Below, one piece after another: positions 45,501 to 51,500 of a DNA stretch of 64,000 bases; the first letter of the stretch is position 1; each line of letters begins with the position of its first letter. The translations under genes were made by a program, and so were the position numbers. The notes under the pieces were generated by a model that did not search any database, was not told where the DNA came from, and saw only the letters and a list, made by a program, of their open reading frames with translations. The DNA is from Tubulanus polymorphus (taxonomy: Eukaryota; Animalia; Nemertea): positions 2,356,001 to 2,420,000 of the forward strand of contig NC_134025.1 in assembly GCF_964204645.1 (NCBI RefSeq), read 5' to 3'.

Positions 45501-48500
45501 ATTTCGTTACAAATTAATTCCAGAGTGAAAAGATCGCTTTTCTGTTGGATGAATCGAACGTAATGGATTCCGGTTTCTTGGAACGAATGAATACTTTATT
45601 GGCGAATGGTGAAGTTCCGGGTTTGTTCGAGGGTGATGAATATACGACGCTGATGACGCAGTGTAAAGAAGGAGCTCAGCGTAACGGTTTGATGTTAGAT
45701 TCCGGTGAGGAATTGTATAAATGGTTCACGCAACAAGTCACGCGTAATCTTCACGTAGTGTTCACTATGAACCCTTCGACAGACGGACTGAAAGACAGAG
45801 CTGCTACTTCACCAGCGCTGTTCAACAGGTTCGTTTAATATTTTCATCACTCAAACAGTAATCGTGTTCCTACATTACCGAGGTATATTCACTCACTGAT
45901 TTTCACACTCAATTTGTAGATGTGTCCTGAATTGGTTCGGCGATTGGTCAAATGGAGCGTTGTTTTCTGTCGGCAAAGAATTCACGAACAAGATCGATCT
46001 TGACAAATCTGGTGTAAGTTATTTTTCATCATGGGCTAATCTTTAGATTTAAGAATTTGGTCATTTTGTTTCTGAAGTCATATTTTAACAACTAAGACCG
46101 GTCTATGCTCATATTGGTTCTCAAAGACCAGTCTATGCTCATATTGGTTCTTAAAGAGCAGTCTATGCTCATATTGGTTCTTATGTCAATCAAACAACTT
46201 AAGAACTTGAGTCATAACTGCACATCGTTGTCTATATAGTAGAATGATATACCTTGTAATGATTATGAAACGTTTATTTCAACAGTACATACCATCTGAT
46301 GATCTACCAGTAGCGTACGAAGGTCTATCAATACCTCCGTGTCACAGAGATGCTGTAGTGAATGCATTCGTCTACGTTCATCAGACTTTACATCAGGCGA
46401 ATGAACGAGTGATAAAACGAGGTGGTCGAACTATGGCGATAACACCGAGACATTACCTCGATTTCATTAATCACTACGTAAGCTTAAATACTGTCAAACA
46501 AACTCGATATGACATCTAAATGTCTTTATAGTCGATTTATTTCCCCAATAGGTTAAACTCTTCAATGAGAAACGCTCGGATTTGGAAGAACAGCAACTTC
46601 ATTTGAACGTCGGACTTCAGAAGATCAGGGAGACCGTAGAACAGGTGGAAGAATTACAGAAATCGCTGTCAATCAAACGACAAGAACTCGAAGAGAAAAA
46701 CAACGCTGCTAACTTAAAACTGAAACAAATGGTTCGTCAGTTTACACGTATCAAATCAAGGCTTTCATTAAACTATTCTCGCTTAATCGAAACTAGAAAT
46801 GATACAATTTGCTCGAATTCAGGTGAAAGATCAACAAGAAGCTGAAAGAAAGAAAGTGGCATCGCAGGAAATTCAACAGAATCTACGCGAACAAACGAAA
46901 GTTATTTCTGAGAAGAAAGTATTCGTTATGAACGACCTCGCTCAAGTGGAACCGGCAGTTATTGAAGCTCAGAATGGTAAGATTAATGTTTACTCATTGT
47001 TTATAACATTCAACAATATTTCGAATTTAAAACTGCCTTAAGTATTAATAATGATAATCACTATGGCTCTGTAATATAAACTCGTATTTATAAACGTATG
47101 GCCTTTGAGACAATACGGTCTGCTATATCATGGCTCTGATATGCAATTTTATTATCGATTCCAAGTTCCAATTCCTGTAAATTGAGCGTTTGCGAGTAAA
47201 ATGTGCACCTGCTAATTTCCTTTTCATCATCATTTGGTTTGGGGAAATGTTTTTGTTCTACGCGCATATTGTGTTTCAAGCTCCTTTCTTCTCCTGTGAG
47301 GGCGGCTAGACATTCATTCCACTTATAGAAATAGTACTTTTTATTTGCTTCATTTTCATGTGCAATACAGCCTCAATAAACCTGACCATAATTCAGACAA
47401 TATTCATACGTAGCCACAGGTTATTTAGACTGTATAATTCAATTGATTTAGTTAATCAGTTATCAGGAATTCAGGATTTAAAAAATGAACAGTTTCATGA
47501 AAAAGTTAAAAACGGTTAAGTTTTGAATTCTTGTCCTCATTGAAAACTCTGAATAACCAAAAATATGAGTTTAACTTTTCCGTGGAGCTTGACCCAGGAC
47601 CGACTTCCACAGTTCCCCTCAAGGTTAAAACATCAATTTTTACTGCAATCAAACGTCTGCAACTGTGGGTCTCGGTCCTGCATTCCATCCATAAATATTG
47701 AAGGTTTTATGACTTTTACTCTGCGAGATTTATATATATATATAGAAAATTTTTAAAATGATGATTCAAATAATTACATGTACATTTAAAAGAATCATAA
47801 AACCTGATGCATTTATGAATTATTTGCTTTGGTCCGTCTGAGTGATCCGCGGAGGTAGCAGACTCTTGTTTCGTATGCCTTGATTTTGTTTTACCCTACA
47901 GCTGTGAAATCTATTAAGAAACAGCATTTGGTGGAAGTTCGAGCCCTCGGTAATCCACCTACTATCATAAAGGTGGCGTTGGAATCAATTTGTACATTAC
48001 TCGGCGAGCCTGACCTTGACTGGAAGGCTATGCGTAGTATAATAATGAAAGAGAACTTCATATCGACTATTGTCAACTTCTCTACTGATGACATTACGTA
48101 AGTTTTTTGGCAGCCACCAGTTGTTGCTCGCGGTTGATGTTGTTACATAGGGAAGATCGGTTCACCGGTGTATCCAATTTATATACAATAAACCCTGTTT
48201 AATCCGGATCAAAATCCATCTCTAACTGATTGGAATAAGATTGTATATTGGCGATCCTGAGGAATGTTGAAGTGAGATTGAATATTTTAGAGATCGTTTC
48301 ATACATAAATTGGAATATGCTCTGAACCTATGTTCCATGGGATGTATCCTCACCACAGCGCTGGTGCTGCCCTTTGTGGCTGTTAGTAATCATAGTTCAG
48401 TGTTATAACTCTTTCATTTTGTCAGCTGTGAAATCGATCAAGAGGCAACACTTAGTCGAGGTGAAATCTATGGGTAACCCACCCCCCGTGGTTAAACTCA

Positions 48501-51500
48501 CTATGGAGTCAATCTGTTTACTCCTCGGTGAGCCGGCCTCTGACTGGAAAACCATTCGTACCACTATCATGAAAGATAACTTCATCCCTACAATTGTCAA
48601 CTTCTCAACTGATGATATATCGTAAGTCTTCTATTGAACTTGGTGCACGAGACCAGCCACAGCAGCAGCAGCCGTAGCTTCCCCTCCCTGCATGATCATC
48701 GGGATGTGGACTACCGTACAATCAGCTTGCATTGTTAAACCAACCCCAGTTGGAAGTCATACAAAAAATATTACTCTCAAATTTTCTCTCCCTTTCAATT
48801 AGAATACAGTAGTATTTTCTAATTTTCTATCTAATCTGGAAAGTTTCAAGTTTCTCCTGGAGATGGGCCTCTATGCAGTTATATATCTGAATTCAGTTTA
48901 ATGTCCTATAGTTGAAGGAATAGCTTGTTACAATGTTGATTTGTGTAGTAGGTCTCTTTGCGTACGTATGCATTTCAATGTTGTTAGTTTAGTCAATTCT
49001 TTGGTGAGTAAATGAAGCATCTTCTAGGAAGCCATTTTGGAATTGCTTTTTTGCACATTTTGCCTATGATTTAGTTTAAGTTACATACATATATATATTA
49101 GTCTGATTTCCCCTTTATCCGGTATCCAATCAGTAGTGCATCAAGTAAATAGTAAGACTAATAAAAACTCTTCATTTATTCTATGATTATTGCATGCATT
49201 TTTTATGATGTTATTAGTAAACTGTGTCTATTTTTAATGTAGTAATTCGTTAATGATTTGTGCTGAGATAAATAATGTGTCATTGGAAAATATATATTAA
49301 AATCTTACGATGTGTCTAAAGAAAGTTCTTTAATCATGCATTTCAAAAAAATGTTCTGTCAATGTTTTCAGATGTTTTCACGTTTAACTTTTGATCAATT
49401 TCAGCGATGACATCCGTTCCAAAATGAAGACCAGATATTTGAGCAATCCGGATTATAACTTTGAGAAAGTAAACCGCGCTAGTTTAGCTTGCGGTCCGAT
49501 GGTGAAGTGGGCTATTGCACAGGTAATAGATTGGAAATTTTATTTCCAAAGAAAAATTGTTTTACTGTAGTTTGTAGTATTTAGATTGCCAGGATTTTAC
49601 GAGGCACTATTGTTTTTATACGTTCATAGATCAGTTACGCTGAAATGTTAAAGCGAGTCGAACCGTTAAGAAATGAATTATCGAGTCTGGAACGCGAAGC
49701 AGATGAGAATCGATTGAAAGGTGAAGAGTTAGAAAACTTGATCTCTGAGCTGGAAAAGAGCATTGCGAAATACAAAGAGGAATACGCCGTATTGATCAGT
49801 CAGGCTCAGGCTATTAAAGCTGATTTAGCATCTGTTGAAGGAAAGGTAAGAATTCGTTATTTCTTTAGATGATTTAAGAATGAATTGTAGTTTTCATCGA
49901 TAAGTGACCTACTTGTACATATGTGTAGGAGAAAAACCTTATGAAAGTTCAACGCCATTGCTATGAGCATTTTGGAAACAGAATTATGATTGATGTGTTT
50001 GTTTTGTAGGTTGAACGTAGTGTTGCGTTATTGAAAAGTCTCGGTAATGAGAAGGACAGATGGGAAGCTACTAGTGAAACGTTTAAGAATCAAATGTCTA
50101 CTATCACTGGTGATGTTCTGCTCTCCTCAGCATTCATGGCCTACGCCGGTATGTCTAATTTCTATCTGTTAAGTAATAGATACTGACTCGCGTAGTTTTA
50201 TGGTCTATCATATGATTGATATTTTGTTTTAAGGTTATTTCGATCAACAAATGAGACAGAATCTATTCGCAACGTGGTCTCATCACCTTCAACTGGCTAG
50301 TATACAATATAGAGGAGACCTGGCTAGAGTTGAGGTTTGTATCGGATCTTCGGGCAATTAATTATTGTTAACATTCGTTATATAATTCTGTAAATTTATT
50401 TCTATATCAGTATTTGTCCAACGCTGATGAACGCTTGCGTTGGCAAGCTAGTTCCCTACCGGCTGATGATCTATGTACGGAGAACGCTATCATGTTGAAA
50501 CGATTCAACAGATATCCATTAGTTATTGATCCGTCTGGACAGGCAACGGAATTCATCATGAACGAATATAAGGACAAGAAAATCACTAAAACGAGGTATT
50601 TCTTCGTTCAGTATGAAATATCCGCATCTAGAATCACAGTGAATCAATAAACAGCATAGTATCTTCGAGCAATATCTCACAATTGAAGACTAAAATCGGG
50701 CTAAAATCCGTTTTGAAACAAGAATTTTTGACTTTCTTGCCTTCAATCATGGGATTTTGCTTTAATCGCCTTTTTCACGGATTATTGTGTTTCAACTCAT
50801 AAAATTTCATCCGTTTTGTATATCTAGTTTCTTAGACGATGCTTTCCGCAAGAACTTAGAAAGTGCCCTACGTTTTGGTAATCCATTATTAGTACAAGAT
50901 GTCGAGAACTACGATCCTATATTGAACCCGGTGTTGAATAGAGAATTGAGACGTACCGGTGGTAGGGTTCTTATTACACTCGGAGATCAGGATATCGATC
51001 TTTCACCATCATTCACTATATTCCTATCAACTCGAGATCCTACGGTGAGTAACTCATTCGTGAAATCGCCTCGCAGTGAAATATACTCGGAAAGTTGAAG
51101 AAAATATTTATTCGCGAATTTAGGTTGAATTTCCACCCGATATCTGTTCTCGTGTGACGTTCGTGAATTTCACTGTAACTCGCAGCAGTTTACAAAGCCA
51201 ATGCCTGAACCAGGTATTGAAGGCTGAACGCCCGGATGTCGACGCTAAGAGATCCGATCTTCTCAAACTGCAAGGTAAATAAATCGATGAAATATTCTAT
51301 GAATCAATTATGAGCAGCGAACCACCCATGAAAATGGGTTTATATCCCTTGATTATGCCATATTTGATGGTAAGGCTAAAAAAAATTGATACCTTGTTTC
51401 TCCGCTCTGCTGAGCTTAAATGTTGACCCGGCCGGCCGCCTATCTACCCTATACATTATTTTTTTTAAAAATCGTGATCAATTTTACCATAACAGACCCG

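Follow-up and report, generated by a model that had tools for sequence, protein, structure and literature searches.

The dynein locus and its tandem exon pair

The 64,000-nucleotide stretch of the Tubulanus polymorphus (Nemertea) genome analyzed here, positions 2,356,001 to 2,420,000 of contig NC_134025.1 and hereafter called the window, contains a gene for cytoplasmic dynein heavy chain 1 that extends along the + strand between about 12500 and 59830 in window coordinates. In most animals one dynein-1 heavy chain gene provides nearly all minus-end transport, and choosing between exons for the microtubule-contacting domain could tune the motor. Two similar exons, A and B, lie side by side in this gene, and we describe the pair together with two predicted RNA structures that may bear on the choice between them. 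The exons are listed below in window coordinates.

46823-46976, + strand: constitutive exon preceding the pair (spliced joints 46730>46822 and 46975>47901 with GT..AG ends; translation)
47902-48097, + strand: alternative exon A, 196 nt (spliced on both sides in sequencing run X5; joined to 49405 in run X2)
48426-48621, + strand: alternative exon B, 196 nt (X2 contig 48425-48621; joint 48621>49405)
49405-49522, + strand: constitutive exon following the pair (joints from A and from B)

A and B are equal in length, share the same phase and have a DNA identity of 70%. Both code for the front part of the microtubule-binding domain, corresponding to human residues ~3296-3359, and exon A matches solved microtubule-binding domains with an E value of 2e-25. 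Runs X2 and X5 were taken to be RNA-derived on the strength of their spliced joints. A single X5 contig passes from the upstream exon through A to the downstream exon. X2 supplies one contig per exon, ending at the exon borders, along with the joints A>49405 and B>49405, both with GT..AG ends and 29 letters on the short side; the joint from the upstream exon to B is unlisted in X2 because the first ten letters are common to A and B. Neither exon is covered in runs X6 and X9. A and B are a genuine alternative pair of tandemly duplicated exons, both spliced and each joined singly to the next exon, in contigs that cannot themselves show the A+B form to be absent. No A-to-B joint is listed in eight of ten runs (X1-X7 and X9), a result that carries no evidence since rare forms drop from contigs, and the A/B ratio cannot be derived from contig depths.

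Beside the spliced forms, X2 holds unspliced contigs at 48068-48454 (A to B) and 48592-49434 (B to the next exon), and it covers the intron upstream of the pair in part only. The unspliced contigs may mean that the cluster is spliced slowly or that the run contains DNA.

The reading frame is open with either A or B. Because the exons are 196 nt long, not a multiple of three, joining A to B or skipping both shifts the frame, and translations of both products reach early stops. Exclusivity could come from this frameshift and decay alone, with no structure required.

The exon pair in other animals

A scan of metagenome contigs returned 11 loci, three of which carry an exon pair (L004, L006 and L007); four are single-copy or cut short (L001, L002, L003 and L005) and four are distant or spurious. 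Scans of genome and viral contigs found no orthologous DNA. The three paired loci, on animal metagenome contigs, have the same tandem arrangement as the window, L004 being without the upstream intron and L007 without the end of the downstream intron. A tree built from 65 short rows, rough given its few columns, has a single branch with support 84/78 that separates four A copies from four B copies, and a scallop protein groups with the A copies. This arrangement points to a lophotrochozoan animal and to an old duplication. The fish-type dynein sequences P0001, P0002 and P0003 (P0003 being named Coryphaenoides rupestris, a grenadier fish) also have a second copy of the exon. The second copy from two of them forms a branch of its own, and, judging from these sequences, the fish copy is probably a separate duplication.

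An exon pair in Schistosoma mansoni DHC1 is already in print (PMC3228551) and is mentioned again in PMC5100056. Like the pair described here, it consists of mutually exclusive exons of equal length in mid-gene with split codons at both ends, and the two are likely identical, although the accessible text of PMC3228551 leaves the domain unnamed. That text differs from the present analysis in that it describes no RNA structure. The exon pair itself is therefore known, and the stems are the new question.

Predicted structures around exon B and across the A-B intron

The initial annotation of this DNA proposed that competing RNA stems switch the two exons in the manner of docking and selector sites. 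A strand just upstream of exon B was said to pair either with sequence downstream of B (duplex (i)) or with sequence downstream of A (helix (ii), which closes nested helices across the A-B intron). All 14 segments that it named lie where it placed them, letter for letter. The elements are as follows, with P denoting the predicted pairing probability and shuffle counts the number of shuffled sequences that did as well.

48375-48402, + strand: uncontested 5' arm of duplex (i) (middle helix P 0.98-0.99 with or without helix (ii); 4/2000 shuffles)
48632-48661, + strand: uncontested 3' arm of duplex (i), beginning 11 nt past the exon B donor (sequence, folds, shuffles)
48662-48672, + strand: 3' arm of the outer helix of duplex (i), a short CAG run (alone 465/2000 shuffles, not significant)
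48360-48371, + strand: contested strand, with partners 48109-48120 in helix (ii) or 48662-48672 (at 37 C, P 0.11 versus 0.80; 1.4 kcal/mol apart)
48109-48120, + strand: 5' arm of helix (ii), the base of the rod, beginning 12 nt past the exon A donor (sequence; at 37 C, P 0.91-0.92 before the downstream arm and 0.11 after it)
48145-48182, + strand: 5' arm of the inner rod, with two natural variants (48165 and 48170) (P 0.88-0.95 in most folds)
48305-48333, + strand: 3' arm of the inner rod (sequence; inverted repeat I1; folds)

Folding predicts duplex (i) as the structure of lowest energy, and it would loop out exon B, both of its arms adjoining the splice sites of that exon. Between the 80 nt before B and the 80 nt after it, windows fixed by the splice sites, it reaches -45.7 kcal/mol, a value equaled in 1/1000 shuffles (z -3.9). 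Against the 64-kb background, 2 of 3184 equally spaced window pairs were as good, and none of 156 matched for GC content. The signal was weaker in looser windows (16/500 when the next intron was limited to its first 150 nt, 59/500 with all 783 nt of it). It is carried by the uncontested part of the duplex, the contested outer helix being unremarkable. The complementarity around exon B is non-random.

The A-B intron is predicted to fold into a rod of -48.7 kcal/mol, compared with -24.8 +/- 4.8 for shuffled sequence (0/500). It extends from +12 to -55, or 80% of the intron, and helix (ii) forms its base. The inner rod was equaled in 4/2000 shuffles with hand-picked arms and in 20/500 when it was folded on itself. 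Helix (ii) alone was borderline, at 108/1000 in windows fixed by splice sites and 8 to 125/2000 in hand-picked ones. The expectation that the stems would outdo shuffled sequence was thus borne out for duplex (i) and the rod, left in doubt for helix (ii), and disappointed for the region as a whole, whose folds were unremarkable (z -1.15 and z -1.41). With a single copy in the window and no excess depth in genomic reads, the rod is not an obvious mobile repeat, and Rfam returned 0 matches over 46900-49500. Four within-species variants fall in the A-B intron. Two are neutral and two lie in a rod arm, where both improve pairing (C.C to G-C and G-U to A-U); 30 of 228 possible changes in the rod arms are stabilizing. 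Duplex (i) and helix (ii) have no listed variants, a comparison of little power.

Exon A has no loop-out stem beyond chance in windows fixed by its splice sites (393/1000) or in the whole upstream intron (381/500). A weak pairing of 47846-47862 with 48121-48134 reached P 0.2-0.3 only when the exons were held unpaired.

It is conceivable that the B-looping duplex is the only structure that matters, drawing the exon A donor side near the downstream intron as the downstream stem does in the Drosophila serpent gene, with the rod and helix (ii) neutral. The location of the signal in the uncontested part of duplex (i) and the borderline standing of helix (ii) fit such an arrangement, and in the accessible text of PMC4691838 the serpent deletions showed that approximation, and not the helix itself, was needed. 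Nonetheless, the rod was matched by none of its 500 shuffles, and it is the rod and not the B loop that recurs in relatives (below), so that we regard this explanation as quite unlikely.

Compatibility of the two folds

In the model of the initial annotation, 48360-48371 is a docking site, and two mutually exclusive pairings choose between A and B. One strand with two partners is indeed present: 48360-48371 can pair with 48109-48120 or with 48662-48672, each helix alone being borderline or not significant, and the outer helix and helix (ii) compete within 1.4 kcal/mol. Mutual exclusion of the folds, on the other hand, did not survive, since that strand is all they have in common and both coexist in prediction. 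When helix (ii) was enforced, the ensemble energy rose by 1.4 kcal/mol, the middle helix of duplex (i) kept its P of 0.98-0.99 and the inner helix stood at 0.75-0.91; looping out B was still worth ~20 kcal/mol. Helix (ii) would accordingly fail to release exon B, which stays looped in its presence.

Two further features might rescue a docking site. The A-side arm could also pair in a second register, on 48376-48386, which would prevent the middle helix of duplex (i), and a protein could hold it there, but this register lies 3.2 kcal/mol above the best fold with P 0.006 before the downstream arm is made and costs 13 kcal/mol afterwards. The same 7-mer follows both exons in their downstream introns; as a duplicated selector it was rejected, being at chance level (105/500). 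Of the docking and selector logic, the alternative exons and a duplex looping out B are retained. Pairings that exclude each other and expose different exons, a defining feature of such systems, are not found in the predicted folds, and the contested helix is neither significant nor detectable in the three paired loci. A docking role for 48360-48371 is the least probable of the explanations considered here.

Folding order and a proposed hand-off

Ever longer transcripts were folded, each at equilibrium for its length and not as a kinetic simulation, and the order of events was identical at 15, 25 and 37 C. The rod with helix (ii) holds P ~0.9 as long as exon B is incomplete. The inner part of duplex (i) then appears beside helix (ii) in transcripts to 48665, and from 48680 the outer helix takes over (0.74-0.89) while helix (ii) falls to 0.02-0.12.

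Two putative branch points for exon B, both from a motif score against a branch-point consensus, are placed differently with respect to these structures.

48384-48390, + strand: best candidate branch point (A 48389, -37), inside duplex (i)
48403-48409, + strand: second candidate branch point (A 48408, -18), outside duplex (i)

The suggestion that duplex (i) covers the branch region of B is thus right for the best match and wrong for the second. Candidates in the relatives lie at -35 in L004, -35 in L006 and -29 in L007, those of L006 and L007 ranking first and that of L004 not. A motif is kept around the -35 candidate in L004 (397-425) and L006 (1340-1368), in introns that otherwise differ. 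The distance from the exon A donor to the branch point, ~290 nt along the linear intron, shrinks when helix (ii) is folded to 29 nt (11 + 18) for the candidate at -37 or to 48 nt for that at -18. By comparison, less than 50 nt between donor and branch point is counted as steric interference in the accessible text of PMC5740500, and that of PMC12350175 models yeast zipper stems with a linker of at least 42 nt and a range of 42-85 nt.

With these distances in mind, we tentatively propose, as a possibility we favor without thinking it probable, that the two predicted structures steer the choice between A and B by a timed hand-off and not as a two-state switch. The effects on splicing are what we infer; the exon pair, its splice forms, the frameshifts and the complementarity with its statistics are as reported above. 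First, the nascent A-B intron would fold into the rod, whose base, helix (ii), would leave ~29 nt between the A donor and the candidate at -37, likely too little for the spliceosome, and joining of A to B would be blocked. During the ~240 nt of further transcription the B acceptor would remain open, and the upstream exon could claim it to give the B form. Second, if B is still unclaimed, the arm after B would pair with 48375-48402, loop out B and bury the branch point at -37, whether or not helix (ii) stands. Third, branch migration into 48360-48371 would displace helix (ii) and release the donor region of exon A, with the A form as the outcome. Out-of-frame products that contain both exons or neither would be removed by nonsense-mediated decay.

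A more elaborate form of the same idea is unlikely. In it, the locus would act as a strand-displacement timer: the rod clamps the A donor against the B branch point, the arm after B, by way of a 28-nt toehold, buries the branch point and opens the clamp, and the speed of the polymerase sets the form of the motor. The rod would be the old part, its shape kept across lophotrochozoan animals.

Evidence bearing on the proposed hand-off

Several observations weigh against the hand-off. Duplex (i) has an equilibrium P of 0.99, yet spliced B is readily found, and for that reason the duplex cannot be a strict block. Use of the branch point at -18 would give a linker of 48 nt, within the 42-85 range of the stems that promote splicing, and would leave that branch point unburied. 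Hairpins abound in this DNA, z being <= -3 in 32 of 389 windows and <= -4.9 in 18 of 389, so that the rod by itself is about a 1-in-20 event here. The rod-arm variants, which may have arisen in either direction, would look the same in a decaying inverted repeat. And all folds are nearest-neighbor predictions made without proteins.

The related loci add to this list. In the orthologous introns, to which the initial annotation had looked for support, neither duplex (i) nor helix (ii) is detectable at equivalent positions of the three distant paired loci. A B-looping duplex is not significant there (L004 89/500, L006 203/500, L007 270/500), and L004 offers only a loose pairing of different geometry (13/500). 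The introns of the relatives do not align with the window. According to the accessible text of PMC5740500, such structures are usually lost over long evolutionary distances, and the negative result in the relatives therefore neither lends the idea support nor rules it out.

A hairpin in the A-B intron does recur, at 2/200 shuffles in L006, 2/200 in L007 and 19/200 in L004. Among control introns, 5 of 37 reached <=2/200 (2 of 39 intervals having been dropped for length, <140 or >1000 nt, and the ends of the intervals being approximate, as taken from gaps between protein matches). The recurrence gives a Fisher p of 0.019 with the window included and 0.074 without it. Of the five significant control introns, only 44230-44389 starts and ends as tightly as the rod. 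The hairpin cores differ, lying at +72/-85 in L006, +100/-68 in L004 and +36/-64 in L007; with positions that vary in this way, they do not define a common steric geometry. A seemingly homologous stem of L004 and L006 with apparent two-sided changes, worth -28.1 kcal/mol in L006, was rejected at P 0.0 in the ensemble of the L004 intron.

These results bring us back to frameshift and decay. The stems may be incidental or minor, with exclusivity provided by the frameshift and nonsense-mediated decay, and the ratio of A to B set by splice-site strength and RNA-binding proteins. The early stops in the A+B and skip-both translations are what such a mechanism needs, and the accessible text of PMC5740500 gives 60% as the share of human clusters whose lengths are not multiples of three. 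It would also agree with the lack of a conserved B loop in three relatives, with a hairpin-rich genome in which the whole region reaches a z of only -1.15, and with the fact that the stems were chosen post hoc. Set against this are two structures within 600 nt that each pass tests fixed by splice sites or by the whole intron, and a rod that recurs in two of three relatives and is not an obvious mobile repeat. We consider incidental stems a serious if somewhat doubtful alternative.

If the timed hand-off is true, steric exclusion and loop-out are joined in one three-way junction; if it is false, what remains is a commonplace exon pair guarded by frameshift, its hairpins due to chance. Most tests of exon choice guided by structure have been made in arthropods, along with a few vertebrate genes, and a compact, 600-nt case of lophotrochozoan type is cheap to test.

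Relation to known systems

Work by Yue and colleagues from 2013, going by its title, reportedly holds that steric hindrance and RNA structure together keep the two-exon cluster of Dscam exon 17 exclusive, a combination like the one put forward for the dynein locus. The B loop resembles that of Drosophila serpent exon 4.1/4.2 (Us-Dd, stem II; PMC4691838), also a two-exon cluster, in which a strand between the exons and a strand after the second exon loop out the second exon; the stem found here around exon B, at 1/1000 shuffles and 2/3184 background pairs, is of this type. In the accessible text of that paper serpent differs in that its first exon, too, is enclosed by a stem, one that is conserved and has been probed with mutations, whereas the dynein locus has a rod spanning the intron and no exon A stem beyond chance (393/1000). 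Human ATE1 exons 7a/7b (R1R3 versus R3R4; PMC7797038) likewise have a strand between the exons with two partners, one intronic and one across an exon. As far as its accessible text goes, ATE1 carries its partners as similar copies immediately 5' of either exon, and a 3' splice site is hidden by each pairing; in the dynein gene both partners follow the exons, and only the outer third of the duplex is contested.

Dscam1 exon 6, 14-3-3 and Mhc (PMC6071210, PMC4691838) share with the dynein locus a long-distance pairing of introns close to duplicated exons that are mutually exclusive. In the accessible portions of those papers they differ in having a single conserved docking site outside the cluster, with each pairing selecting one exon; here the common strand lies between the exons, and the alternative pairing would not expose B. 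Yeast zipper stems (PMC12350175, accessible text), like the rod, are intron stems that bring donor and branch point together, but they leave 42-85 nt and help splicing, whereas the rod would leave ~29 nt (-37) or 48 nt (-18). An intron-spanning rod with a base common to a loop-out duplex has an exact match in none of the systems compared. A literature search, which left most subscription papers outside its reach, found nothing on RNA structure at dynein exons or on how the exon choice is made.

Other features of the window

A dispersed, high-copy repeat (depth >500 in run X7) is represented in the intron before exon A by a 40-nt piece at 47509-47547, surrounded by nested inverted repeats at 47419-47820. 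Within the large dynein intron (~20200-32800) lies an intronless frame for a Rho-like GTPase on the - strand (28850-29485; Pfam Ras, E 2e-47; CAAX-like end). The same intron contains a tandem duplication, 23456-25853 and 25851-28773, identity being 99% across 1588 nt and 97% across 819 nt, and both duplicates carry an array of 15.6 units of 20 nt. It is either a recent duplication or an assembly artefact.

Upstream of the dynein gene, a gene for a CAP-domain (cysteine-rich secretory) protein occupies 7276-9400 on the + strand (Pfam E 2e-22); a protein search found no close relative for it at E 1e-20. An array of 54 units of 26 nt at 4460-5867 has long open frames on the + strand. The strongest hairpin in the window is a long palindrome at 61365-61541 (79% over 177 nt), adjoined on the - strand by a cysteine-rich frame (61577-62038) that has an antistasin-like match at E 6e-6. 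A dispersed repeat of 290 nt is present in three copies that are 86-91% alike (3278-3562, 15362-15657 and 52401-52696), two of which lie within dynein introns in opposite orientation.

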